DNA of 64,000 bases from Escherichia phage vB_Ec-M-J (OQ718158.1); one strand, 5' to 3'; shown: positions 26,761 to 47,058, counted from the stretch's first letter. Notes: generated by a model from the sequence alone, not told the origin. Numbers and translations: made by a program.

Positions 26761-27144
26761 ATGATAAACGATGTAATGCTTTATGTATTAATTACTCCGA
26801 TTCTTATTAACTCAGTAATAACTATTTCAATGGCATTATTTGGTATAGTAGCAATTGTTTATGCGGTTAGTACTGGAAAGTATACTTTAATTAGTAAGGT
26901 TGATTCATGGTTCGCATCTGATAGTGTACCATATTCAGCTAGTATGATTACGATTGGTATTCTAATCGTTGCATTTACACTGCACTGTATTGGTTTTATT
27001 AATACAAGTATTTTTTCAGTTTTTATTGGTCTATCATTATATCCATCACTTTGGTACTTGATTTATGTAATCGATGTTTGGTATAATAACTACAAGCAGT
27101 ACAAAGTGAAGAAATCCATTTTATCCAAAGGAAACAAATCATGA
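26761..27144 (+). CDS. hypothetical membrane protein
   Basis: Several TM helices. Confidence 0.55.
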   Translation: MINDVMLYVLITPILINSVITISMALFGIVAIVYAVSTGKYTLISKVDSWFASDSVPYSASMITIGILIVAFTLHCIGFINTSIFSVFIGLSLYPSLWYLIYVIDVWYNNYKQYKVKKSILSKGNKS

Positions 27145-27495: not shown

Positions 27496-27687
27496 ATGTT
27501 GATTTATCAATGTGATAACATTCGTGTTATGCAGCATCCCTACTTACAAATCTTTGATGTGCAGCAGTATATGGAAGGTGATGACCCAAGAACCTATGGT
27601 CGTAAGTATGATTACTTCACTGTAAAGCAGTGTCATAACATCAAAGAAGTACGACAATTAGTTCAAGAACTTCAAAATAAAGGTTGA
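27496..27687 (+). CDS. hypothetical protein
   Basis: ATG at 27496 after GAGGA; stop overlaps -35 of next cassette. Confidence 0.5.
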   Translation: MLIYQCDNIRVMQHPYLQIFDVQQYMEGDDPRTYGRKYDYFTVKQCHNIKEVRQLVQELQNKG

Positions 27688-27713
27688 CTTCGGTCAACCT
27701 TTTTTGTTATAAT
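27681..27713 (+). promoter_or_regulatory. PeSL-like promoter/UUCG-hairpin cassette
   Basis: aggTTGACTtcggtcaacct hairpin containing the -35, T-run, TATAAT 18 nt downstream. Confidence 0.6.
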
Positions 27714-31476: not shown

Positions 31477-31740
31477 ATGGCTGAAACATTATCACTATAT
31501 GCGTTAGTACTGTTATTTGTCGGATTTCTTCCCGCACTCATTACAGCCATTCGTGTTGTTAAACATGAAGCTGCATTGATTGTATGTAGTATTGGGTCGA
31601 ACATTCTATTGTATTTCTTTTTGACAAACACTATTGTACTGTTCGCTTTCTTTATCATGATTCTGTGGGTACTTGTAATTCTCGGATTCTTCATTTGGTC
31701 ATTGGTTGATCCTAAGAAAAAAACAGGAGAAGTGAAATGA
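31477..31740 (+). CDS. hypothetical membrane protein
   Basis: TM helices. Confidence 0.55.
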   Translation: MAETLSLYALVLLFVGFLPALITAIRVVKHEAALIVCSIGSNILLYFFLTNTIVLFAFFIMILWVLVILGFFIWSLVDPKKKTGEVK

Positions 31741-33697: not shown

Positions 33698-33949
33698 ATG
33701 TTTAAATATGTTTTATTTTCACTTGTATTGTTTACTGATATAGTTTATAGTACTGAATACCAGTGCTCCATTGCTAGACAGGAGTTTAGAAACGGTGAGT
33801 TCTATACCAAGTCTTACACTAGAGGATTGGTACATGACAATAATAAAACTATAGGGTTCAATGCATTTGATAACAAAGATCGATATACGTCTGGAATACT
33901 ATCTGAACGTAAGTCTGATATACTAGGTATCGAGCGTGAATTCCGGTGA
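33698..33949 (+). CDS. hypothetical secreted protein
   Basis: Hydrophobic N-terminus. Confidence 0.5.
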   Translation: MFKYVLFSLVLFTDIVYSTEYQCSIARQEFRNGEFYTKSYTRGLVHDNNKTIGFNAFDNKDRYTSGILSERKSDILGIEREFR

Positions 33950-33959
33950 CACGGTTGCA

Positions 33960-34310
33960 ATGTGTAATGATATTGAGAGTACTAAGAAAGTATATACTAA
34001 TGGTGAAAATACTTTTAGATTCCACAATCTTACTACTAATGAAAGTTTATACTTCTACAACTGTAAAGAGTTCATTAAACCTGTGGATAACTCATGTGAT
34101 ATGCCGGAGCCAAAAGCTGCTGTATGTGAGGAACCACAATCCAAAGCTGACAAAGATTCAAAAGATAAGAAAGACAAAGCTGACAAATCGGATAAAAAAG
34201 AAAACAAAAAGAAAGCTAAAGATGATAAAGATAAAAAGTCCCCTAAGCCAAATCCATTTGAAAAGCCAAAGAATGAAAAGCCAAAACCAGACATGACATG
34301 TAAAATATAA
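33960..34310 (+). CDS. hypothetical Cys-containing protein with Lys/Asp-rich tail
   Basis: ATG at 33960; low-complexity KDKKDKADKSDKK tail. Confidence 0.45.
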   Translation: MCNDIESTKKVYTNGENTFRFHNLTTNESLYFYNCKEFIKPVDNSCDMPEPKAAVCEEPQSKADKDSKDKKDKADKSDKKENKKKAKDDKDKKSPKPNPFEKPKNEKPKPDMTCKI

Positions 34311-34317
34311 AAGAAAA

Positions 34318-34350
34318 GGGTTGACTTCGGTCGGCCTTTTTTGCTATAAT
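34318..34350 (+). promoter_or_regulatory. PeSL-like promoter/UUCG-hairpin cassette
   Basis: gggTTGACTtcggtcggcc hairpin, T-run, TATAAT, conserved leader catttcatcaact. Confidence 0.6.
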
Positions 34351-34376
34351 CATTTCATCAACTACTGGAGGCAAAC

Positions 34377-34790
34377 ATGTTAAAAGTTATTTTCCGTTCT
34401 ATCAGTTCATTACTTCTTATGATTAGTTCAGTTTGTTATGCAAATGAAGTATCTGATTTATTTGAGAAGAATTACCCAACTGCACAAGAGATGGGTGTTT
34501 TAAAATGCAAGCTAACTTCGTACAACATCATCGGCAGTAAACTTGTACTAGAACATGAACGTAGTACACCAATCCCTCTAGTAGAAGAAGGTAGTACCTT
34601 TAGCTTCAAGTACGGGGTGAACGTAACATCTGGTGTAATGAACAATGTTGATGCAGAGACTGGTTCAACATGGAGTACTAGCGGTAAAGATGTGTTTCAT
34701 CGTATGCGTGAAAATGGTAAACTGAAGTACGTATATGAAAGTTCATTCATGAAACGTGTATTCATTATAAAAAATTGTGTACCAGCATAA
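34377..34790 (+). CDS. hypothetical secreted protein
   Basis: GGAGG SD; signal peptide. Confidence 0.6.
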   Translation: MLKVIFRSISSLLLMISSVCYANEVSDLFEKNYPTAQEMGVLKCKLTSYNIIGSKLVLEHERSTPIPLVEEGSTFSFKYGVNVTSGVMNNVDAETGSTWSTSGKDVFHRMRENGKLKYVYESSFMKRVFIIKNCVPA

Positions 34791-35086: not shown

Positions 35087-35425
35087 ATGGAACAACATTT
35101 TGAATTAATTAATAAGGTATCATTTTATGTAGTATCATTAATTTGGGTGTATTACATGTTTTGTTACATTATTGCATTCTTCCGATACACGACCTTGTAT
35201 CAACGCATATACTACGATGCACCCATTTCATTTATGATGTTCTGTGCATGTACGTGGGGGATAATTGAAGCACTGGTATGTGGATATAGTACTGACGAAT
35301 TAAATCTCGTATCGGGGTTGACATTACTAACAATTGCCATTATGATAGCTACTGTTCCGATATTTTTGCTCTTTAAACTGCTTCATCGTATCGATGAGTG
35401 GCGTAATAAAATCCCTGAAAAGTAA
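35087..35425 (+). CDS. small 3-TM membrane protein, family copy A
   Basis: Three hydrophobic helices; C-terminal WRNKIPEK. Confidence 0.6.
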   Translation: MEQHFELINKVSFYVVSLIWVYYMFCYIIAFFRYTTLYQRIYYDAPISFMMFCACTWGIIEALVCGYSTDELNLVSGLTLLTIAIMIATVPIFLLFKLLHRIDEWRNKIPEK

Positions 35426-35434
35426 GGATTGATA

Positions 35435-35776
35435 ATGATTTTTTACACTAATGCGTTTGCTTATGCCGTTGCATCAATCTACATTGTGTACTTCTTATTT
35501 GGTGGAGTACTGTACTTCTTTAAGTACAAAACATTGTTTAACCGAATGTATCCAAATCACCCAATTGTAGTAGTACTTTTGATGATTTCTGTTGCTCACA
35601 TCATTGTAGAAACAATAATGGGTATCAGTGCAGTACATTACAGTCTAGGTACTATTGTGATTATTACTATGATCATCGCATACATTTTAGTAATGGGTTC
35701 TGGTTTATTTGGGAATGTAGCAATGAAATTGTATAATCGAATTAAAACCTTACGTGATAATCTACCGGAGCGTTGA
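35435..35776 (+). CDS. small 3-TM membrane protein, family copy B
   Basis: C-terminal LRDNLPER; tandem to copy A. Confidence 0.6.
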   Translation: MIFYTNAFAYAVASIYIVYFLFGGVLYFFKYKTLFNRMYPNHPIVVVLLMISVAHIIVETIMGISAVHYSLGTIVIITMIIAYILVMGSGLFGNVAMKLYNRIKTLRDNLPER

Positions 35777-35777
35777 G

Positions 35778-36122
35778 ATGTATAATTTAAATTTAATCTC
35801 ATATATCATAACAACACTGTTTACTTTCTATACCTTTGTCGGTATACTCCTACTGTACTTTAAATTTTATAAACTCTTTGACCGTTTATATCCATCATTG
35901 GAACATGAATTCTTATTGGTGATGTACATCTGTTTAACGTGTATGTCTACATTTTTCACTGTATTTGATGGTATCATCGGTATTAAAGCTGAAGATCCAA
36001 ATGGCAGTACACTTGTTGCCTTTATCCTGGTAGGATTCTTCGGTACTTATATCACTTTCATTTCAACATGGTCTGTGGTTGATTATCTCATTAGATTACG
36101 AGATAAAATGCCAAATCGATAG
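35778..36122 (+). CDS. small 3-TM membrane protein, family copy C
   Basis: C-terminal LRDKMPNR; ATG 2 nt after upstream stop. Confidence 0.6.
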   Translation: MYNLNLISYIITTLFTFYTFVGILLLYFKFYKLFDRLYPSLEHEFLLVMYICLTCMSTFFTVFDGIIGIKAEDPNGSTLVAFILVGFFGTYITFISTWSVVDYLIRLRDKMPNR

Positions 36123-36131
36123 GGGATTGCT

Positions 36132-36389
36132 ATGTTTGCATTGCGTAATAAAAATACAAAAGAGATTCTATGTATCTCAACAGTATGGGATTGTGCAGGA
36201 AGTGAAATGATCCTCGAAGAAGGTTCAGGTGATTGTGTTTATGTTGTTCATGATCGTCGCGAACTGGAATCATTACTTGATGAATTTAATGCTGGTGGAA
36301 ATCCTAAAAGTACTCAATTCCCTGAGATCAGGAATCCAGCACCACCAGGCTCTTATGAAATTCTACAACTGTGGGAGATGGATAAGTAA
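36132..36389 (+). CDS. hypothetical protein
   Basis: 85-aa ORF. Confidence 0.55.
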   Translation: MFALRNKNTKEILCISTVWDCAGSEMILEEGSGDCVYVVHDRRELESLLDEFNAGGNPKSTQFPEIRNPAPPGSYEILQLWEMDK

Positions 36390-36769
36390 TGCGACAAATG
36401 CACAAAGTAACCGAGCTAAACAAGCGTCTGATTAAACAATCAATGTTTGAGGATAAAGAGTCTTACTATAACTTCAAACGTGCTGTAGAGGCTGCTATCC
36501 ACATTCAGAAGCTTAAAGATAGTGGATGTATTATTCTCGAAAATGGTTCTGACGTTGTTACTGATGACTTCAGTGTAGCGTTTGATGTTTCACCTGATGG
36601 TTCGCTATCAATGCCACGCTTAGGGACTGGTGACATGACTGTGTGGGTAGGTTTCACTATGGGGAATGTACCAGGCACGGTGTATGTAGATGATGCTGAG
36701 TTGAAAGAAAGCTTTAAAAACTTATCGCATCTTGAACCACAATACGCACATGAAATGAATTTATTTTGA
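36389..36769 (+). CDS. hypothetical protein
   Basis: TAATG coupling. Confidence 0.55.
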   Translation: MRQMHKVTELNKRLIKQSMFEDKESYYNFKRAVEAAIHIQKLKDSGCIILENGSDVVTDDFSVAFDVSPDGSLSMPRLGTGDMTVWVGFTMGNVPGTVYVDDAELKESFKNLSHLEPQYAHEMNLF

Positions 36770-36770
36770 G

Positions 36771-36799
36771 TTGACAAACTCATTCAGTACTGTATAATG
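36771..36799 (+). promoter_or_regulatory. sigma70-like promoter with cagtactg spacer
   Basis: TTGACA-N17-TATAAT followed by gtttatcaa. Confidence 0.6.
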
Positions 36800-36845
36800 T
36801 TTATCAAGGGGATGAACTTCTCATCCCCACAATCGAGGAATTGTC

Positions 36846-37400
36846 ATGATTACTTTTAAGAAAACTGCTAACCACATCCATGAGATCTACATTAACGGTC
36901 ACAAAGCTGGCCTTCTTCGTTTACTCGCCCATCATCCGAATATTACCGTATCTGATAATGAACCTAAAGATTGGCGTGTATTTTTCTTTGGAAAGTACAG
37001 TGATTTTCAAGTATCAAACCTGAAGAACATTCGTTCAGTATGCACGTTAACTGAAATTAAAGAAAAGTTAACCAAAGCATTGAAAACTAATCCAGATGGT
37101 GTTCTTCCACCTGATAACTTTGTAGAGAAAGGATATGCCTTAGCTCATTTCAAAGATGGTACTATTCAATCTATCAGTACTGAATATGAATATCAATGGA
37201 CTGAGTACTTCACTTATGGATCGCGTAATACATTGATGGCTTCACGTAGTAAATTGGAAGAAGTACTGACTCGTATGAATGAACGCGAGCGTCAGTACTA
37301 TGACAAACCAGAAATGTGGAGTTCAACTTACATTGACCGTATTGACTATGTTATTATGACTCCAATCTTTGACACTGCTTACTATGATTCTTTGAAATAA
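36846..37400 (+). CDS. hypothetical protein
   Basis: CGAGGAA SD; 184 aa. Confidence 0.65.
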   Translation: MITFKKTANHIHEIYINGHKAGLLRLLAHHPNITVSDNEPKDWRVFFFGKYSDFQVSNLKNIRSVCTLTEIKEKLTKALKTNPDGVLPPDNFVEKGYALAHFKDGTIQSISTEYEYQWTEYFTYGSRNTLMASRSKLEEVLTRMNERERQYYDKPEMWSSTYIDRIDYVIMTPIFDTAYYDSLK

Positions 37401-37411
37401 GGATAACTTAT

Positions 37412-37588
37412 ATGAAACTACGTACTCGTAATCGACTGATGGATGCACTGTACCATGAACAGCTTTCACTGAATGAAGTGAAGCGACAGTTAATGTACAC
37501 ATATCTGTTACCCGCTCGCATTGCAAAACAACGTGCTAAAGAATTGCTGAAAGAAGCAATCGAGTACTGGGAATCTGATTCGTACTAA
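37412..37588 (+). CDS. hypothetical small basic protein (58 aa)
   Basis: AAGGA SD; below track cutoff; the overlapping antisense track ORF is rejected. Confidence 0.45.
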   Translation: MKLRTRNRLMDALYHEQLSLNEVKRQLMYTYLLPARIAKQRAKELLKEAIEYWESDSY

Positions 37589-37616
37589 TTGTCACGTTAA
37601 TTAAGTGAGGCGATAA

Positions 37617-37868
37617 ATGAAAATTTTATTAGTTCTAATACTACTAATTGTTTTACCATTTACGTTAGTATCCCCTGAACTTGCATGGAATGTGTTTGTG
37701 TACTTACTATGTACTATGATAGTAAATGGTATCTTGTTCTTAGTTCTATTCATAAATGGAATAGGACACGGTGGAGGATGGACCAGTACTGCTGATATTG
37801 TACATAAAACCACTATGTCTTTATTTGTAGTGTGGAATTTATTCTGGACTTGGTTTGTGTTCTTCTAA
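37617..37868 (+). CDS. hypothetical membrane protein
   Basis: GAGG SD; TM helices. Confidence 0.55.
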   Translation: MKILLVLILLIVLPFTLVSPELAWNVFVYLLCTMIVNGILFLVLFINGIGHGGGWTSTADIVHKTTMSLFVVWNLFWTWFVFF

Positions 37869-37878
37869 TTAAAAAAAT

Positions 37879-38250
37879 ATGAATATAGATTTGAAAGGTG
37901 CAACACGAACTGTCATACTCATTGGGGAATATGCTATCAAGATTCCAACCTTTAAAAGTTGGAAGCTATTCTTAACAGGGATGATAGCTAACCTCAATGA
38001 ACGTTCGTGGATGCAGTACTCCAAGCGTAGTGATACTGGTATCTGTCCTACTTTGTGGTCATCATGTACTGGACTAGTAACTGTACAGAAACGTTGTAAG
38101 CCAGTACAACATAGGGGTTTATTTTGGGTGGAGTTGTGTGCTTTAGCATTGAATTCAGAGTTAAGTACTGACTTCTTCTATTCAGATGCGAAGCCAGAAA
38201 ACTTTGGGTATCTGTGTGGTAAGTTGGTTAAACTTGATTATGGAGATTAA
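37879..38250 (+). CDS. hypothetical protein
   Basis: 123-aa ORF. Confidence 0.5.
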   Translation: MNIDLKGATRTVILIGEYAIKIPTFKSWKLFLTGMIANLNERSWMQYSKRSDTGICPTLWSSCTGLVTVQKRCKPVQHRGLFWVELCALALNSELSTDFFYSDAKPENFGYLCGKLVKLDYGD

Positions 38251-38251
38251 T

Positions 38252-38521
38252 ATGTACGCATTGTATAATAAAGAAAAGAAACGATTTGCTAAGGTTGAAA
38301 TTTCGATTGATACATTTGATATGTTGGAGTACTGTATTGTAACGGACTTATATGCTAACTTGTATTACGTTCTTGATGACGTATCAGTACTGCAACGATT
38401 GCTTGAGAATTCCAAAAGTCAATGCCAGGGCATCCATGATGGTTCATCTTATGAAACACCTGAGTGTTCCTACGGCTATCTGGACGGGTATGAGATTGTG
38501 AAGTTGGGGATTGTTGAATAA
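38252..38521 (+). CDS. hypothetical protein
   Basis: ATG at 38252 after GGAGA. Confidence 0.5.
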   Translation: MYALYNKEKKRFAKVEISIDTFDMLEYCIVTDLYANLYYVLDDVSVLQRLLENSKSQCQGIHDGSSYETPECSYGYLDGYEIVKLGIVE

Positions 38522-38533
38522 ATGGATTAAACA

Positions 38534-38947
38534 ATGAAGAAGTGTATCACGTGTAATATTGAAAAAGACATTAGTGAATTTGGTATAAGAAGTGATACTG
38601 GGAAACATAGAAATACATGCAAAGGTTGTAGTAATATTACCAGTAAGAAAACCAGAAATAAAAAAACTGATGTCAAAAAACTTGAAGAAATCAAAAGAAA
38701 AAATAAAGATTTCATGACCAGAGTTAAATCATTTTATGGTTGTAGTGTTTGTATGATGAAGTATCCAGAATGTTTAGACTTTCACCATCTTGACCCTAAT
38801 ACCAAAGAACATACACCAAGTTCTATGTTCAGTAAAAGTCGAGATGCTATCAAAGATGAAATTCGAAAGTGTATGATTCTTTGTTCTAATCACCATCGCA
38901 TGGTACATTCTGGTAGACTATGTTTGATTGAAAGAAAAAAGGGTTGA
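38534..38947 (+). CDS. HNH homing endonuclease
   Basis: CxxC pairs plus DFHHLDPNTKEH...ILCSNHHRMVH; stop codon lies within the -35 of the next cassette. Confidence 0.7.
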   Translation: MKKCITCNIEKDISEFGIRSDTGKHRNTCKGCSNITSKKTRNKKTDVKKLEEIKRKNKDFMTRVKSFYGCSVCMMKYPECLDFHHLDPNTKEHTPSSMFSKSRDAIKDEIRKCMILCSNHHRMVHSGRLCLIERKKG

Positions 38948-38973
38948 CTTCGGTCAGCCCTTTTTGCTATAAT
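38941..38973 (+). promoter_or_regulatory. PeSL-like promoter/UUCG-hairpin cassette
   Basis: gggTTGACTtcggtcagccc hairpin, T-run, TATAAT. Confidence 0.65.
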
Positions 38974-39001
38974 CATTTCATCGAAACGAGAGGATGAATA
39001 C

Positions 39002-39517
39002 ATGACACGCATTAACTTAGTACACGTTAAAGAACTTGCTGACCAACATCTGATGGCTGAATATCGTGAACTCCCACGTGTGTTTGGTGCTGTACAAAAA
39101 CATGTTCAAGCACGTAAGCGAGTCCGTGATTTCAAAATTAACAGTACTTACCTGTTAGGTTCAGGTCATGTAACATTCTTCTACAACAAGTTATTGTACT
39201 TACAGAAGCGTCATATTGATATTGTTAACGAATGTTTGCGTCGTGGTATGAAGATTCAAAACACTGAAGTAAACGACATTAGCGGATTCCCTGCTGAGTT
39301 TTGTAATGACTACGTACCATCGGAGTCAGAGATTAAAATGTCTCGTGAGCGTTTGATTGAGAAGCTCCAGATGAAGCCTACGTGGTATAAATTTACTGAC
39401 GTTGAACGCCCACAGTACGTTAAAGATATGCAGGACGTAAGTAGTAATATAGAATCTAGTACTGATATGTTAGACGAAATTGAAGAACAAATCAAAGATG
39501 AAATGAATAATTATTAA
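39002..39517 (+). CDS. denV: endonuclease V (pyrimidine-dimer DNA glycosylase/AP lyase), T4 DenV homolog
   Basis: N-terminus [35 protein letters not shown]...RVRDFKI...GHVTFFY closely matches T4 endonuclease V as recalled from memory. Confidence 0.8.
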
Positions 39518-39522
39518 AGGTA

Positions 39523-39540
39523 AGGGTTAACTTCGGTCAC
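39523..39540 (+). repeat. degenerate remnant of PeSL-like cassette
   Basis: gggttaacttcggtcac resembles the cassette hairpin but lacks T-run and -10. Confidence 0.35.
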
Positions 39541-39555
39541 ACAAAGGAACATAAC

Positions 39556-39750
39556 ATGTTATTAGTATATTCAAAGCGTTTCTGGATTTCTTTTATTGTA
39601 CTATCGCTTATCGGCTTCGGTGTGAGTATACTCTTTTCGTGGGATGAATTGGGTACATGGTATTATGAAGTTCCGTGGTACATGAAGATAGCTCCTTGTT
39701 ATGCGGCATTGTTCGTGTCATTCCTTATTGTTGTCTTCAGCGAGGATTAG
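39556..39750 (+). CDS. hypothetical membrane protein
   Basis: AAGGAA SD; two TM helices. Confidence 0.55.
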   Translation: MLLVYSKRFWISFIVLSLIGFGVSILFSWDELGTWYYEVPWYMKIAPCYAALFVSFLIVVFSED

Positions 39751-39801
39751 TTGATGTAGTAGGTGCTACACCAAAGTATTTGGATATTTGAGATATAAAC
39801 A

Positions 39802-39830
39802 TTGACACCTGTTCTATCTTTCTGTATTAT
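39802..39830 (+). promoter_or_regulatory. sigma70-like promoter
   Basis: TTGACA-N17-TATTAT. Confidence 0.5.
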
Positions 39831-39856
39831 GTACATCACCAAATGAGGAATACCAC

Positions 39857-40216
39857 ATGGCATCTTTAAGTGAAATCGCGGAATACAACCCACTAACAAT
39901 CTCAACAATTCAACGTACAAAAACTTTTTATTTCCGTCCTGCTGATGGATGGAAACGTGGAATGAATGGTGACTATCGAGTACTGGAAGATGCACTCGTC
40001 GAGCGTATCAACTCTGAACTACATAAGTATGAAGGTGTTAAAGTTGTGCGTTCAACTTCTCGTTATTTTGAGTACTACATTGAGTCTTCAACTGTAAATG
40101 AAAACTCATCATTCTCGGTGGATAACACTGATATTCTTCGCAATGCAGTTGGTCTGTTATGCAACATTGCTGAGGAAATGGGATTAACTATTACTACAAT
40201 GAGTGAATTAGAATGA
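39857..40216 (+). CDS. hypothetical protein
   Basis: GAGGAA SD. Confidence 0.6.
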   Translation: MASLSEIAEYNPLTISTIQRTKTFYFRPADGWKRGMNGDYRVLEDALVERINSELHKYEGVKVVRSTSRYFEYYIESSTVNENSSFSVDNTDILRNAVGLLCNIAEEMGLTITTMSELE

Positions 40217-40410
40217 TTAAAACTTTTATTCTTACTATGGTATTTGGGTCTTATGGGTATGGTGGTGGTGTAGCAACAGTTGAGTATCCATTATACGAAG
40301 ATTGTAAGGCCGCCGCTGAAGTGTTTGTAAAAACAACCAAAGATTTAGCAACTGTCACTGATGCAAAAGCTTGGTGTACAACTAAAAATACACCAGAAAC
40401 TAAGAAATAA
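40213..40410 (+). CDS. hypothetical secreted/membrane protein
   Basis: ATGA overlap; hydrophobic N-terminus. Confidence 0.5.
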   Translation: MIKTFILTMVFGSYGYGGGVATVEYPLYEDCKAAAEVFVKTTKDLATVTDAKAWCTTKNTPETKK

Positions 40411-40418
40411 AAAATAAA

Positions 40419-40451
40419 GGGTTGACTTCGGTCAGCCCTTTTTGCTATAAT
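40419..40451 (+). promoter_or_regulatory. PeSL-like promoter/UUCG-hairpin cassette
   Basis: Near-identical copy of cassette at 38941 and 41830. Confidence 0.65.
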
Positions 40452-40477
40452 TATTTCATCAACTGATGAGGTAACAA

Positions 40478-40714
40478 ATGAAACTATCTTTTATACGATT
40501 AGCTGAATTTTTCGGTACTAATGTAATTACTCTACAACAAATCGCAGATAATACATCATTAACTACTCAAGAAGTACTTGACTTAGATGTAATTCAGTGC
40601 GATAATACTTCCATCGATTACAAAGAAGGTCTTGTCGAAAAAGATAAGATTCAAGCTAAGATTAATGGTGCTGGACGGGTTCAGTACTGGAAAGGAGTTT
40701 TAAGTAATGTATAA
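40478..40714 (+). CDS. hypothetical protein
   Basis: GAGG SD in conserved cassette leader. Confidence 0.55.
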   Translation: MKLSFIRLAEFFGTNVITLQQIADNTSLTTQEVLDLDVIQCDNTSIDYKEGLVEKDKIQAKINGAGRVQYWKGVLSNV

Positions 40715-41822
40715 ATTTTATTTTAATGACGATGGTGAAAAAGTTTATTTCCACGAAGAACTTGGTATGCGTTTTGAATGGATGCACGCGGAAGACATTG
40801 AACAATTTTCTTGTGGAAAAACTGCCAAAGACCACGTTGATGACATAGAGGCATCATTCTATGATTTAGGAATAACTGATATCACAATTTTGGGTATTGG
40901 TGTGTCAAACGCAGCTGAATTTGGTATTTCTGGAAATTCACATGCTAAAATCGTCTTAAAAAAAGACGATATCATCTATAATAATTATAAAATAACTGCT
41001 TTTAAAACAAAGCTTAATAAGTTGTCAGAAGGTGATGGTATTAAGTTATCTTTTTCATACACAAATGATAATTATTACTATTACGTAACCAAACTTGCAA
41101 AATTACAATCTAAAAACTGTCATATACATCCAAATGAAATAATTGATAATGGAATTTCATCTAAAATAAAATTCACATATAGTGATGGTGTAACTGTACC
41201 TAGAAGAATAAATGATATATTGACAAAAACTAAAATTAATGTGAGTTATTTTGTAGATGATGATATTAGAGATGGGGTAGCTTTAAATCGATGTAGAGAA
41301 TTGAAATATCATTTTCAGTCTATTTACAAGCATGAGAATGGACGATACTTTGTAAAATATGAGTGTACTAGAGGTCATCAATGTGATCAAGACTATCATG
41401 CATTTACTGGTACAGCGAAGCAATCATGTGGTGTGTGTTCTAAACTTAAGACACACTCATATGGTCATAATGATACCATGAAATTTTTAAGGAATTTGCA
41501 TATTACAATAACGGAAAAAACTTTCAATGATTTGAAAGATAAAATGAAACTTCCATATGATTTTTATGTGAAAGATTTAAATGCGTTGATAGAATATGAC
41601 GGTAGTGATCATTTTAAAAATAAGTCATCTCGAAACAATTTTATTGATCGTCAGAAGAAAGATAAAATGAAAACGGAGTACGCAATCAACAATGGATATA
41701 ACTTCCTACGAATTGCATATTATGAAGGTCATCTTGAAGTACTGGAATCTTTCCTGAAACTCATCGAAGAGAACCCAGGAAAGCAAATCGTACAGATTTA
41801 TGGTGATGTGAAAATCATCTAA
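40707..41822 (+). CDS. putative nuclease with C-terminal Vsr/DUF559-like domain
   Basis: C-terminal ALIEYDGSDHF...RQKKD...NGYNFLRI pattern plus internal Cys cluster; family assignment from memory. Confidence 0.4.
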   Translation: MYKFYFNDDGEKVYFHEELGMRFEWMHAEDIEQFSCGKTAKDHVDDIEASFYDLGITDITILGIGVSNAAEFGISGNSHAKIVLKKDDIIYNNYKITAFKTKLNKLSEGDGIKLSFSYTNDNYYYYVTKLAKLQSKNCHIHPNEIIDNGISSKIKFTYSDGVTVPRRINDILTKTKINVSYFVDDDIRDGVALNRCRELKYHFQSIYKHENGRYFVKYECTRGHQCDQDYHAFTGTAKQSCGVCSKLKTHSYGHNDTMKFLRNLHITITEKTFNDLKDKMKLPYDFYVKDLNALIEYDGSDHFKNKSSRNNFIDRQKKDKMKTEYAINNGYNFLRIAYYEGHLEVLESFLKLIEENPGKQIVQIYGDVKII

Positions 41823-41829
41823 AACAAAA

Positions 41830-41862
41830 AGGGTTGACTTCGGTCAGCCCTTTTTGCTATAA
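41830..41862 (+). promoter_or_regulatory. PeSL-like promoter/UUCG-hairpin cassette
   Basis: gggTTGACTtcggtcagccc hairpin, T-run, TATAAT, leader catttcatcaactgatgagg. Confidence 0.65.
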
Positions 41863-41891
41863 TCATTTCATCAACTGATGAGGATAACGAA

Positions 41892-42662
41892 ATGACCAGA
41901 GAAGCACGTAGCATTCAAATCCAGAAAAACTTCAACTCCATGATGGTTGCTCTTGAGTGTTTGCTCGACGATAACAGTACTGTAAAAAGTATGGTTGTCA
42001 GCGGTGCACCTGGTGTTGGTAAGACTTACACCCTGTCACAACGCCTCCAGAAAGCTCATGACGCAGCAGAATGGAACGTAGCTACTATCAGTGGTAAGAT
42101 GACTACTCTTGCTCTGTACGAAGTTCTGTACAAGAATCGTCACAGCACTAACGTATTAGTACTGGATGATATGGACAGCATCTTTGATTCAGAAGACGGT
42201 ATGAACCTGCTCAAAGCAGTACTGGACAGCGGTAAACGTACTGTGTCTTACATGACTAGCTCTAAGTACTTAACTACCAACGGTATCCCTAACAGCTTTG
42301 ATTTTAACGGTCGTATCGTATTCATTACTAACAAAGATTTAGCACTGAATGCTAAAGCTAAAACCAAAATGTCTGCTCACTATGCTGCTCTTATGTCTCG
42401 CTCTGTGTATGTTGACTTACAGATCCAGACTAAAAGCGATATCATGATTCACATTGAAAACGTAATGAACAAGACCAACATCCTGTCAACTAAAGGTGTT
42501 AATAGTAATGGTAGCAAAGCAATCCTGAATTGGATGCTGAAACATGAAGATGCACTTCGTGCCCCTTCACTGCGTATGCCTCTGTTGATTTCAGCAGTAT
42601 ACAACAACAACCCGTATGATTGGGAAGAGCAGTGCGAAAACTTGTTCCTTGAGAAAATTTAA
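41892..42662 (+). CDS. P-loop NTPase (AAA-like ATPase)
   Basis: Walker A SGAPGVGKT, Walker B VLVLDDMD, sensor-like RIVFITN. Confidence 0.65.
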   Translation: MTREARSIQIQKNFNSMMVALECLLDDNSTVKSMVVSGAPGVGKTYTLSQRLQKAHDAAEWNVATISGKMTTLALYEVLYKNRHSTNVLVLDDMDSIFDSEDGMNLLKAVLDSGKRTVSYMTSSKYLTTNGIPNSFDFNGRIVFITNKDLALNAKAKTKMSAHYAALMSRSVYVDLQIQTKSDIMIHIENVMNKTNILSTKGVNSNGSKAILNWMLKHEDALRAPSLRMPLLISAVYNNNPYDWEEQCENLFLEKI

Positions 42663-42729
42663 TTACATGTATTGACAGCACTACACTATGGTAGTACTAT
42701 AACTTAATATTCACCACCGGAGATACGAT

Positions 42730-43068
42730 ATGCTTGAGTTTTTTAATTCAGATACAATGCTTAGTATTACTTTGATTTATCTGTTTGGTTTTTTCTTTTA
42801 TCATGCACTAGTTGTAGTACTATGGTATTTTAAAAAGAAAATTGTTTTCAAACTGTATCCTGATGGAAATATTTCACTACTTCTTTTCACTATTATCCAA
42901 GGTATGTTTGCAATTGTTGGTCTTATCGCACACTTAATTTATTGTGCTAATCCACAGTTGAACTCAATATCACAATATATTGTTTTCCTTGGATTACTAA
43001 TTTGGGTGCTGATATACTTGTTTAATCTCATCATTAATGGTAGAGCAAAAATTCGTGGGGACTTCTAA
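42730..43068 (+). CDS. small 3-TM membrane protein, family copy D
   Basis: GGAGA SD; three hydrophobic helices. Confidence 0.6.
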   Translation: MLEFFNSDTMLSITLIYLFGFFFYHALVVVLWYFKKKIVFKLYPDGNISLLLFTIIQGMFAIVGLIAHLIYCANPQLNSISQYIVFLGLLIWVLIYLFNLIINGRAKIRGDF

Positions 43069-43415
43069 TGTTTGAATCTTATCTTGAGTTTTTAAAGAGT
43101 AGTTCTGTTGCACATTCAATTGCAGGGATTATTCTAACAGGTTATGTAACATTTTGGGTAGTTATGTTTCTAGGATGGTATTTTAAACGACAATTCTATA
43201 AGCGTAATGGTGAAGATTTTATGAATTCTTTCATTAATCAATCGTTGTTTGCATCAACATTGATAGCATGTATTGTAGCAACACTCACAGGAAAGGTACT
43301 GCCAGCATTCTCCGCAGTTTACGGTACATTGGGTATGATATGTGTAGTTTTTTACTTGACCATTAAACTTTGTTGTGTTATGATTGAACTTCGAAACAAG
43401 ATACCGGAGGAATGA
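43068..43415 (+). CDS. small 3-TM membrane protein, family copy E
   Basis: TAATG coupling; C-terminal ELRNKIPEE. Confidence 0.6.
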   Translation: MFESYLEFLKSSSVAHSIAGIILTGYVTFWVVMFLGWYFKRQFYKRNGEDFMNSFINQSLFASTLIACIVATLTGKVLPAFSAVYGTLGMICVVFYLTIKLCCVMIELRNKIPEE

Positions 43416-43750
43416 TGGAATATTTTTTACACTTACTGCCGTGGTATATGAAAGTTAGTACTATGTACTATATTCTTAGTGCTGGATTCTACTTTCTGAT
43501 GTGGTTCTTCAAACGACCAATTTCAGTATTCATCTCTGATAACATGCTGCAATTAAAATTACACGCATGGTTTTTTATGGCGATGTTTATGCCTATTATT
43601 CACTACTCAATGATTAGTAGAGGTTTACGTTCTAATGGTGAACCAATTATATTAGTATTCTATTGGGGTTCAACTATTGCATATGTAAGTTTGTTGTTGA
43701 TCCCAGCCGTTCATAAATTGCGTTCTAAAGTTCCTGATGCGAGGTACTAA
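43412..43750 (+). CDS. small 3-TM membrane protein, family copy F
   Basis: ATGA coupling; C-terminal HKLRSKVPDARY. Confidence 0.6.
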   Translation: MMEYFLHLLPWYMKVSTMYYILSAGFYFLMWFFKRPISVFISDNMLQLKLHAWFFMAMFMPIIHYSMISRGLRSNGEPIILVFYWGSTIAYVSLLLIPAVHKLRSKVPDARY

Positions 43751-44064
43751 TGGATATCGTAACATTGATTTACACGTTGTATTCATTCTATTTTATTATG
43801 TGTTGGGTTGGATTTTTATTTGTACTGAAAATGTTTGATTATGTTGAAAAACAGATAAAAGAATTTTGTATTCCTTTTATTGGGTCAACCATAATTAGTA
43901 TTACTTGTTTGTATTATTTGGTATGTGATCCACCTGTTAATACAGCAATGATTGACTTCATGTTATTACCAACAACTGTTATTTTTTTATGTAGTCTGAT
44001 GCCACCGATTAGTCGTGGGCTAACCGAATTTAGACGCAATCAAAAGCGTAAACGAGGGATGTGA
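43750..44064 (+). CDS. small membrane protein, family copy G
   Basis: TAATG coupling; basic C-terminus. Confidence 0.55.
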   Translation: MDIVTLIYTLYSFYFIMCWVGFLFVLKMFDYVEKQIKEFCIPFIGSTIISITCLYYLVCDPPVNTAMIDFMLLPTTVIFLCSLMPPISRGLTEFRRNQKRKRGM

Positions 44065-44432
44065 TGGAAATTGCACTTATTATATTAACTGCTATGTTGT
44101 TTATTAGTACAATTGTTATTATTGGCAAGTTCTTCTGTGTATCCTTCTTGGAAACCGTATACGATGAAATTGCTGATGATTATGAATTACATGCGGGATT
44201 TTTTACTACGTATTGGATTAGTTTATTACTACTTATCACTGTATGGATTTTACATATATTCAAATGGGGTATGGTAGATGGTGATCCAGTACTGGCAATT
44301 ATCTGTGTAGTGTTTGGTCTACTCGGTGGTGCTGTCCATAATCTGATGGTAATTTGGCAAACCGTACAATATGTATTAGTTCCACATTTTCAGAGAATGC
44401 ACCAAAGCATCAAATACCGCAAACGAGGATAA
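44061..44432 (+). CDS. small membrane protein, family copy H
   Basis: ATGA coupling; basic C-terminus. Confidence 0.55.
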   Translation: MMEIALIILTAMLFISTIVIIGKFFCVSFLETVYDEIADDYELHAGFFTTYWISLLLLITVWILHIFKWGMVDGDPVLAIICVVFGLLGGAVHNLMVIWQTVQYVLVPHFQRMHQSIKYRKRG

Positions 44433-44433
44433 C

Positions 44434-44796
44434 ATGAATAATATTGAATTATCTTTTATTGGTCAATTAATGGTAATGGCGTATACATTTATCTTCTCAC
44501 TGAATGCATTCGTGTGCATTGGGAAGTACTTCCATAAGCGACCATTATCAAATATATATGATGTAATACAAAGGAGATATAGTCCAGCATATACTGTGTT
44601 GAGTACAGCATTCAATTTTGGTTTTATTCTAATGCTGGTTGCATTATTAACATCGAGTTCGAATTTTATAACATTTGGTATTATGGTATGTTCACTAACA
44701 CTGTGTGTGGTTATTCTCTGTGCATCAGTTGAGTTGATGGCGTGGATGTATAATAAGATTTCCGAAATCCATGAGCGTTTAGGTAAGAGGAACTAA
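44434..44796 (+). CDS. small membrane protein, family copy I
   Basis: GAGGA SD; basic C-terminus. Confidence 0.55.
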   Translation: MNNIELSFIGQLMVMAYTFIFSLNAFVCIGKYFHKRPLSNIYDVIQRRYSPAYTVLSTAFNFGFILMLVALLTSSSNFITFGIMVCSLTLCVVILCASVELMAWMYNKISEIHERLGKRN

Positions 44797-44797
44797 A

Positions 44798-45169
44798 ATG
44801 AGTTATCGTGAAATATTTTCGATCATTACTATTATTGTGTTTAGTTTAGGTTCTTTGATTTGGTTATTGTATTACTTCTGTGTAACCCCAGTATATAATA
44901 TGCTAAATTCAGTACGCTCTGATGTTGGTATTGTTTCTTTTATTATCTTCATGGCATATTATATGCTAAGTATCACAGGTTTGGTTTTGGTTGTTATCTT
45001 TGACCTTGGACCGAATCAAGATGGTATGGAGGTGTGGGAATTGATAACGATGTTTGCATGTATGATACCTGCATTTGGTGTATGTGCTGGTGTATTTTAT
45101 GGGTTATGTAAAGGTGTGAACTACTTAAAAAATATCCACAATACTATTCGTAAAAAACGTATGTTATAA
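44798..45169 (+). CDS. small membrane protein, family copy J
   Basis: AGAGGAA SD; basic C-terminus. Confidence 0.55.
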   Translation: MSYREIFSIITIIVFSLGSLIWLLYYFCVTPVYNMLNSVRSDVGIVSFIIFMAYYMLSITGLVLVVIFDLGPNQDGMEVWELITMFACMIPAFGVCAGVFYGLCKGVNYLKNIHNTIRKKRML

Positions 45170-45172
45170 TAA

Positions 45173-45205
45173 AAAATCCAGTACTATAATAGTACTGGAT
45201 TAATT
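45173..45205. terminator. bidirectional terminator between convergent blocks
   Basis: ccagtactataatagtactgg palindromic hairpin flanked by A/T runs. Confidence 0.6.
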
Positions 45206-46407: not shown

Positions 46408-47058
46408 ATGAATAAAAGAAGTAAGTTCTATCAAGAATATTTCACTAAACAGAAACGATTCACAAAAAAATACTTTACATCATCCCACCGACCAGTTGCA
46501 AGTTACAAACGTCCTAATACTAACTATCTTACTGGTGGCAAGTTTAGTGCAAAGTTCGAATTACTTATGCGTGAAAAGAATATCAAGATGCATTACGCAG
46601 AGACAAGAAAAAACTCATCAATTATTTGTTCTGATTTTCTTGAGTACGGTTGCTTAACTTATAAATTCAATGATGTATATTTGTATATTGATGTTGATTG
46701 TAACAGTACTCGTATGTTTGAGATTTCAATTCACCCAAATCACAACCGTTATATAAACATTAACTTGGTTGATAAAGTACTGATTGGTATATCTAGTACT
46801 GATGGTGGTGGATTTGAATTTATTGCTTCAAAATATGATGAAGATTTCGTACTTTACCCAGTACTTGATGATGTGAAAGATATTCTCAATTCATTAAAAG
46901 GAAGTCAATACAAATTATCTGAAGAACAGCTATTTCAGTACTCACTTATTCATGATGATATCGAGATATACTTAGAGTGTGCGAGAATCTTGGAGTATCT
47001 TTATAATGAACTAACAACAACTGGTAAAGTGACAGCATTCACATTATATAATATGTAA
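46408..47058 (+). CDS. hypothetical protein (EE-FQ motif family) embedded in the minus-strand array
   Basis: GAGG SD; SEEQLFQYSLIHDD motif. Confidence 0.6.
   Translation: MNKRSKFYQEYFTKQKRFTKKYFTSSHRPVASYKRPNTNYLTGGKFSAKFELLMREKNIKMHYAETRKNSSIICSDFLEYGCLTYKFNDVYLYIDVDCNSTRMFEISIHPNHNRYININLVDKVLIGISSTDGGGFEFIASKYDEDFVLYPVLDDVKDILNSLKGSQYKLSEEQLFQYSLIHDDIEIYLECARILEYLYNELTTTGKVTAFTLYNM

Follow-up and report, generated by a model that had tools for sequence, protein, structure and literature searches.

The ten small genes that form two tandem arrays in Escherichia phage vB_Ec-M-J (OQ718158.1) are, on sequence comparison, paralogues of a single superfamily of predicted inner-membrane proteins. 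In the 64,000-nucleotide stretch that we analysed (hereafter the window), array A (A1 to A3, 35087-36122) and array B (B1 to B7, 42730-45169) comprise ten open reading frames (ORFs), all on the + strand, encoding proteins of 104-123 amino acids (aa). We read them as a modular set of early inner-membrane proteins whose members would individually target different membrane factors for exclusion or anti-defence, and assign this reading a probability of roughly 35%. It is suggested by the gain and loss of genes, by fast evolution under purifying selection, and by a conserved cytoplasmic face combined with variable second and third transmembrane (TM) segments, TM2 and TM3. Region 42700-45200 of the window shares 99% identity with Escherichia phages EC.P1, BF17 and fEgEco12 and ~85% with 121Q, PBECO4 and phAPEC6, which places the window in an Asteriusvirus, one of the 121Q/PBECO4-like, RaK2-like Escherichia coli jumbo phages with genomes of ~350-385 kb. 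All GenBank records examined label the ten ORFs as hypothetical proteins only.

The sequence-only reading that preceded this work had proposed ten strongly diverged paralogues in two arrays and had named shared topology and detectable similarity as the features to look for; formal comparison found both. In Smith-Waterman alignments scored against composition- and hydrophobicity-preserving shuffles, clear homology emerged only among A1, A2 and A3 (A1-A2, z=14.7), and most remaining pairs fell within the range of the hydrophobicity-preserving shuffles. Because pairwise scores alone could not settle homology, profiles were needed, and positional orthologues were gathered from eight Asteriusvirus loci, Klebsiella phage RaK2 and Erwinia phage Hallingskeid. 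Profile-profile comparison with hhalign linked A1-A2 at 98%, A1-A3 at 96%, B2-B3 at 94%, A2-A3 at 90%, B5-B7 at 87%, A1-B2 at 75%, B5-B6 at 68% and B1-B2 at 43%, with B2 serving as the linker between clades, and every score of 45 reversed-profile controls was 20.3 or below. A 49-sequence alignment was used for a leave-one-group-out test in which each protein was scored by a profile lacking its own orthologue group; the ten proteins reached 24-48 bits (A1 32.1, A3 47.7, B1 26.5, B2 43.6, B5 34.6, B6 27.9, B7 44.3), and nine of them exceeded all 300 hydrophobicity-preserving, six-residue block shuffles used as controls. Single-linkage clustering (phmmer) joined 37 of the 49 members at E<1e-5 and 48 at E<1e-3. 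The family profile itself gave the window proteins 52-75 bits with ATG starts (50.7-74.9 bits with alternative starts) and at least 31.8 bits for every array member in the loci gathered, against at most 12.3 bits for the other ORFs of the window and 13 loci. The metagenome locus L018 provided an independent validation: all 12 genes that follow its NrdC.10-like ATPase gene, the constant upstream neighbour of array B described below, match the profile, which had been trained without 11 of them. Profiles, leave-one-group-out scores and clustering thus uphold the proposed ten diverged paralogues, with the weakest support for B4.

The same comparisons merge at least seven PHROG families, so far listed separately, into what the sequences indicate is one superfamily. 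Matches with E-values of 1e-46 to 1e-60 assign A1 and A2 to phrog_19285, B1 to phrog_19454, B2 to phrog_19046, B3 to phrog_27396, B4 to phrog_33258, B5 to phrog_26405 and B7 to phrog_27618; the match of A3 is weak, B6 has no significant match, and all matched families are of 'unknown function'. Weak cross-matches between these families mirror the profile-profile links. Apart from chance-level unrelated matches, none of the ten hit a Pfam-A family at E-values up to 1, no NCBIfam family or PDB or other fold matched, and the PADLOC defence models returned nothing except B6 against a generic 2TM effector (E = 0.12). No exclusion or immunity family was matched in Pfam, NCBIfam or PHROG; the T4 Imm family, which is included in Pfam, was likewise without a match. 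We also considered the 'Phi92_gp231/233/234' notes that the ph0011 record attaches to the ATPase, the B1 orthologue and a nearby gene (L006 9935-11450) as pointers to phi92 homologues. They are unsupported: the phi92 genes differ in size and fail the family profile, so the labels are an annotation artefact.

What do these proteins look like in the membrane? Three hydrophobic segments are present in all ten (Kyte-Doolittle, threshold 1.3), as had been noted at first reading, although the first two are weak in B3, and three TM segments are found in 46 of the 49 family members. The basic C-terminal tails previously ascribed to the whole set hold for nine of the ten (net charge +1 to +5) and fail for B2 (-1), while the recurrent ending R(N/D)K(I/M/V)P(E/D/N) is borne out exactly in A1, A3 and B2 and nearly so in A2 (RDNLPE) and B3 (RSKVPD). 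Lysine plus arginine density is low at the N-terminus and in loop 2 (0.04 each), higher in loop 1 (0.14) and highest in the C-terminal tail (0.24); by the positive-inside rule, this pattern predicts an N-out/C-in topology for the family. AlphaFold2 models of B2 and B5 (predicted local distance difference test scores of 77.8 and 82.0) share a common plan in which TM1 is followed by a short cytoplasmic helix, TM2, and a TM3 running into the basic tail helix. The two best-conserved columns among 104 family sequences are both predicted to lie at the cytoplasmic face: a phenylalanine at the cytoplasmic end of TM1, in the motif (G/L)(W/K/Y)(F/Y)F(K/C) (102 of 104 sequences, including all ten window proteins; F39 in B2), and an arginine or histidine just after TM3, in the motif L-x-x-(L/F/I)-(R/H)-x-K-(I/L)-(P/K) (99 of 104; R109 in B2). 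The first motif takes the form GKFFCV in B5, GKYFHK in B6 and YYFCV in B7. B4, the most divergent member, shares with RaK2 ORF313 and related members a TEF(R/H)(R/N)(N/K)Q-K-basic tail and an F-x-L-K motif after TM1.

Array A consists of A1 (35087-35425, 112 aa, ending in RNKIPEK), A2 (35435-35776, 113 aa, RDNLPER) and A3 (35778-36122, 114 aa, RDKMPNR). Array B consists of B1 (42730-43068, 112 aa), B2 (43068-43415, 115 aa, RNKIPEE), B3 (43412-43750, 112 aa), B4 (43750-44064, 104 aa), B5 (44064-44432, 122 aa, with the basic tail YRKRG), B6 (44434-44796, 120 aa) and B7 (44798-45169, 123 aa). Alternative starts exist for A2 (TTG 35429), A3 (GTG 35754) and B5 (GTG 44061); the ATG starts of A2 (35435) and A3 (35778) agree with the GenBank annotation of fEgEco12 and 121Q and have a ribosome-binding site. 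The ATGA or TAATG overlaps said to join the genes account for about half of the junctions (TAATG at B1/B2 and B3/B4, ATGA at B2/B3, and GTGA or an abutting ATG at B4/B5); the rest are spacers of 1 nt (B5/B6, B6/B7, A2/A3) or 9 nt (A1/A2). As each of the ten genes carries its own GGAG/GAGG-type ribosome-binding site, translational coupling within the arrays is only plausible. At the array B junctions (43050-44800), the ribosome-binding site of the downstream gene is encoded in the last two to four codons of the upstream gene, as in CCGGAGGAATGA (P-E-E-stop) and CGAGGATAA (R-G-stop). Such embedding may partly constrain the Arg/Gly/Glu-rich C-termini of array B proteins; the final gene of each array keeps a basic tail though it is free of this constraint.

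All ten are real genes under purifying selection. The ratio of non-synonymous to synonymous substitution rates (dN/dS), calculated against 121Q or, for B4, against ph0011, is 0.10-0.40 throughout (A1 and A2 0.15, A3 0.28, B1 0.27, B4 0.24, B5 0.10, B6 0.37, B7 0.18). At the same time, dN of the array genes is 0.04-0.30 versus 0.02 for the ATPase gene, and identity to the divergent Asteriusvirus JNE01 is 31-54% for the array proteins, 60% for the ATPase and 96% for DenV. The duplications are old: B3, B4 and B7 are positional orthologues of, and cluster with, RaK2 ORF312, ORF313 and ORF315, respectively, B6 clusters with a Hallingskeid gene, and the duplications are therefore older than the split of these genera. 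Several array positions are thus orthologous between E. coli and Klebsiella phages; along its whole length, B1 shares 27.6% identity with RaK2 ORF311.

The age of the copies bears on a generic function, in which the proteins would remodel the host membrane in the manner of viroporins, altering permeability, proton-motive force, lipids or membrane-protein quality control with no target-specific role. Early-type promoters and the predicted inner-membrane topology would suit such a function, as would the other small envelope-directed proteins encoded in the same operons and region and the acidic residues found in TM2 of about one fifth of the members. However, a generic effect has no obvious need for 10-12 diverged paralogues kept under purifying selection since before the genera split, and no channel-like family or fold was matched. 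We consider it improbable.

Copy number differs widely between lineages. Array B holds about 3 genes in locus L014, 7 in the window and in A4, 8 in 121Q, JNE01 and RaK2, 11 in Hallingskeid and 12 in L018; an extra B0 gene is found in 121Q, ph0011 and UE-S1, B4 is duplicated in JNE01 and Turkey5, and A4 and L014 have a lone A-type gene. A 42-aa soluble ORF with the consensus MKPE.WIIED.R.MRS.K.RS..QE.YLNLL.WYVKVLN.KE lies inside the arrays of Hallingskeid (L009 7850-7978) and L014 (7738-7866) and is absent from Asteriusvirus arrays. Variable, arsenal-like arrays of this kind resemble arrays of orphan immunity genes, and the size and TM number of the proteins are near those of immunity proteins against pore-formers, which raises the idea that they protect against pore-forming toxins (colicins, tailocins) or against the phage's own membrane-active proteins. 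Against it, the sole immunity-type match in Pfam and NCBIfam was Sip4 at E = 0.6, and no cognate toxin gene was identified nearby. Of the explanations considered here, this one seems to us the least probable.

How far does the family extend? A word-indexed protein search, run also with the 49-sequence alignment and at a relaxed E-value, returned close relatives only. When 1.84 billion representative proteins were searched exhaustively with HMMER (16-sequence profile, E <=0.001), only 37 clusters emerged, all of 99-130 aa, matching over their full length and showing no domain fusion. Ten distant clusters that we looked up lie on contigs of 350-362 kb or on short fragments, and each of four metagenome contigs that we read carries further family genes, on three of them behind the ATPase gene. 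The family is restricted to RaK2-like jumbo phages and was not previously described: we found no paper on these genes, their unification, motifs, topology, synteny with the ATPase or copy-number dynamics. The study of phage CBB counted 43 'conserved putative membrane proteins' without analysing them (PMC5259590), and the entries named 'hypothetical' or 'putative membrane protein' in Asteriusvirus, RaK2, CBB and GAP32 are the same genes.

Expression of the arrays is predicted to start from sigma-70-type promoters. A 32-nt cassette, GGTTGACTTCGGTCAGCCCTTTTTGCTATAAT, occurs five times on the + strand of the window (27682-27713, 34319-34350, 38942-38973, 40420-40451 and 41832-41863), versus 0 copies expected by chance. 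It is built from a GC hairpin and a T-run, with a -35 element (TTGACT) inside the hairpin arm and, at a spacing of 18 nt, a -10 element (TATAAT) past the T-run; from this sequence we take it to be a joint terminator-promoter module lying between early operons. The copy at 34319-34350 heads the operon orf137-orf91-A1-A2-A3-orf85-orf126, and the copy at 41832-41863 stands upstream of the ATPase gene. A further sigma-70-type promoter, TTGACA-17-TACTAT (42672-42700, + strand), is predicted by consensus match in the 67-nt gap before B1, and a bidirectional terminator-like hairpin with a 12-bp stem (45175-45201) separates B7 from a convergent RCC1-like gene. In CBB, RpoD-like promoters cluster among short ORFs and were read as marking early host-takeover genes (PMC5259590). 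The sigma-70-type promoters and short-ORF context of the arrays parallel this arrangement, so that, by analogy, the arrays are probably transcribed early. The 62 virion proteins listed for phAPEC6 do not include its B-array proteins (gp012c-017c), a result to be read with the caveat that mass spectrometry readily overlooks small hydrophobic proteins.

The promoters also bear on the holin or antiholin role that the sequence-only reading had put forward, in which the proteins would time lysis as holins, pinholins or antiholins. Size, three TM segments, predicted N-out/C-in topology and a basic C-terminus fit class I holins, none is annotated in these phages, and their endolysin homologue has an N-terminal TM domain and might need a membrane depolariser only. 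But no Pfam holin family was matched at E up to 1, 10-12 conserved, non-redundant copies are unprecedented among holins, and the arrays have sigma-70-type promoters and lie among short early-type genes with no adjacent endolysin or spanin; in 121Q, the endolysin homologue is gene 532 and the arrays are genes 207-209 and 224-232. This candidate is therefore disfavoured, and we regard a function in lysis timing as very unlikely.

The most constant feature of array B is its position. In every lineage examined, it follows the gene for a 254-256-aa NrdC.10-like P-loop/AAA ATPase (41892-42662, + strand, 256 aa, phrog_1250 in the window); the arrangement was seen in the window, fEgEco12, 121Q, A4, JNE01, Turkey5, ph0011, UE-S1, RaK2 (ORF307, then ORF309-316), Hallingskeid, L014 and L018. 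Array A lies elsewhere, 6.6 kb from array B and in a separate operon. The ATPase is present in 1309 phage records and is ~38% identical to that of T-even phages. It aligns to positions 77-326 of the 327-position phrog_1250 profile, and the T2 homologue has 322 aa; the RaK2-like ATPase thus lacks the N-terminal ~76 residues of its T-even homologues.

This synteny invites the main rival to our reading, a single hetero-oligomeric inner-membrane complex, such as a ring or channel, whose subunits would be made in fixed ratios from a coupled operon and which might be anchored or driven by the ATPase. The constant place behind the ATPase gene in Asteriusvirus, RaK2, Hallingskeid, L014 and L018, the partial conservation of gene order between genera, the overlapping or abutting stop and start codons, and the conserved motifs on the cytoplasmic face, a possible docking side for the ATPase, would all be expected of such a complex. 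A copy number of anywhere between about 3 and 12, shaped by gains and losses in particular lineages, is, however, hard to square with a fixed stoichiometry, and array A is encoded 6.6 kb away in a different operon. Moreover, the ATPase occurs in more than 1,300 phage records, with no family member or three-TM protein beside it in the flanking regions read in T2, Vibrio BX-1 and Pseudomonas Deifobo, and a predicted promoter lies between the ATPase gene and B1 in the window. We therefore hold the complex to be unlikely, if less so than the other alternatives.

We return to the modular set of independent inner-membrane proteins. Among the functions suggested at first reading, superinfection exclusion or action on membrane-based defence would be the most reasonable in view of when and where the proteins are predicted to be made (early, in the inner membrane), how fast they evolve and how much their copy number varies; the family probably acts early on the host cell envelope. 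Mechanistically, genes that duplicated in tandem in the ancestor shared by RaK2-like jumbo phages, with copies gained and lost since, would now form two operons transcribed from sigma-70-type promoters: one of seven genes that includes A1-A3, and one of B1-B7 that follows the NrdC.10-like ATPase gene. The proteins would be synthesised early and enter the host inner membrane with a periplasmic N-terminus, a short cytoplasmic helix after TM1 and a TM3 that continues into a basic cytoplasmic helix. Each paralogue would then act largely independently on its own membrane-embedded target, with specificity coming from the variable TM2, TM3 and periplasmic parts, and the cytoplasmic-face motifs (F-K/C after TM1 and L..L(R/H).K(I/L)P after TM3) would supply a common activity or partner. 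As a result, the envelope might be shut to competing phages, or membrane-acting host defences neutralised, during the long jumbo-phage cycle. A more specific version, which we put forward as a speculation with little chance of being right, is a diversified arsenal of membrane-embedded inhibitors whose targets are the DNA-entry channels of rival phages or membrane-acting abortive-infection and defence effectors, with the invariant juxtamembrane motifs coupling all members to one partner, possibly the NrdC.10-like ATPase. Each inhibitor would recognise its own target through its variable transmembrane and periplasmic surface, and the whole would amount to an expandable system of counter-defence and exclusion at the membrane, peculiar to RaK2-like jumbo phages.

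Several observations weigh against this reading. The exclusion or anti-defence role is drawn solely by analogy with other small early phage membrane proteins, and the tight packing of the genes and the gene order conserved between genera would suit a multi-subunit complex as well. The membership of B4 is borderline, at 31.0 bits in the leave-one-group-out test versus a shuffle maximum of 32.5. The early timing is predicted from promoter consensus only, and promoter-like sites in the region are, taken together, no more numerous than in shuffles, so that just the strong intergenic sites and the repeated cassette stand out. Among orthologues, the periplasmic parts are not clearly more variable than the others (per-region conservation of 0.40 at the N-terminus, 0.35 in loop 2, 0.31 in TM2 and 0.27 in TM3). 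Finally, the 121Q orthologue of B4 (L004 10985-11300) is split by one additional T in a T-run and annotated as genes 228 and 229, which may be a homopolymer sequencing error; the alternative is a pseudogene.

The surroundings of the arrays contain the ATPase, DenV, an HNH endonuclease, RCC1-like genes and short hypothetical genes. Array B had been described as abutting a propeller array, and the stop codon of B7 indeed lies 36 nt from that of an RCC1-like gene; the two are convergent, however, with a terminator between them, and in 121Q and ph0011 another gene is interposed. No functional link between array B and the RCC1 'propeller' genes is indicated. Four further small membrane-protein ORFs lie in the window, two with three hydrophobic segments (26761-27144, 127 aa; 31477-31740, 87 aa) and two with two (37617-37868, 83 aa; 39556-39750, 64 aa). 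None of the four matches the family profile or motifs, and small membrane proteins are therefore abundant in the early region as a whole. Between DenV (39002-39517) and the ATPase gene, the interval 39556-41890 is a variable slot that holds five ORFs in the window, among them a 371-aa ORF (40707-41822) with no Pfam match. The slot is empty in fEgEco12, contains a DUF4379 protein in Turkey5, a methyltransferase and others in ph0011, and different genes in 121Q; in L014, the ATPase gene is immediately preceded by a DUF723-type gene in the opposite orientation. The slot resembles a hotspot for insertions of a mobile or endonuclease-like kind. Upstream of array A (33698-34790), ORFs 33698-33949 and 34377-34790 have signal-peptide-like N-termini, and ORF 33936-34310 is Lys-rich. 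The first of these is called a 'lytic conversion lipoprotein' in fEgEco12, belongs to PHROG 28901 of unknown function and has no obvious lipobox. After array B, A4 (L002 14164-14715) and RaK2 (L008 11131-11727) carry a homologous lipoprotein-like gene of ~190 aa (MKR..R..NVIR(D/E)RFRKV...C); in the window, its place is taken by another gene, of 216 aa (46408-47058), and by RCC1-like genes.

What makes these genes worth pursuing? Jumbo phages carry hundreds of early genes without an assigned role, and here ~3% of the coding capacity of the window goes to one conserved, expanding family of predicted inner-membrane proteins. It has clear limits, lends itself to simple tests and is unusually expanded, offering at least ten related, easily cloned candidates for the control of the host envelope by giant phages. 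If its members block other phages or membrane defences, they would form a new class of exclusion or anti-defence factors, with a bearing on the design of phage cocktails because Asteriusviruses are under development for therapy. Should they instead assemble with the NrdC.10-like ATPase, the first functional handle would be gained on a protein that T4-like phages also have.

Finally, we would like to set the family beside known small membrane proteins. Pore-forming colicin immunity proteins are inner-membrane proteins with three to four TM segments, and the array proteins are like them in size, TM number, inner-membrane location (here predicted) and occurrence in variable gene sets; they differ in having no sequence match, a phage context and no partner toxin. 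Class I holins are small proteins with three TM segments, an N-out/C-in topology and a charged, basic C-terminus. The array proteins share this outline with holins of the lambda S type (~100-120 aa, three TM, predicted N-out/C-in, charged basic C-terminal tail), but they have no sequence membership in holin families, occur as at least ten conserved paralogues, have early-type promoters and lie outside a lysis cassette. T4 Imm, HK97 gp15 and P22 SieA are inner-membrane proteins of phage superinfection exclusion, which in virulent phages are expressed early. Like them, the proteins described here are small, phage-encoded, fast-evolving, apparently non-structural and predicted to reside in the inner membrane; unlike T4 Imm, which has two TM segments, they have three, and there is no sequence match. 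To our knowledge, the known examples of superinfection exclusion are single genes, whereas the genes described here stand in conserved arrays of 7-12.

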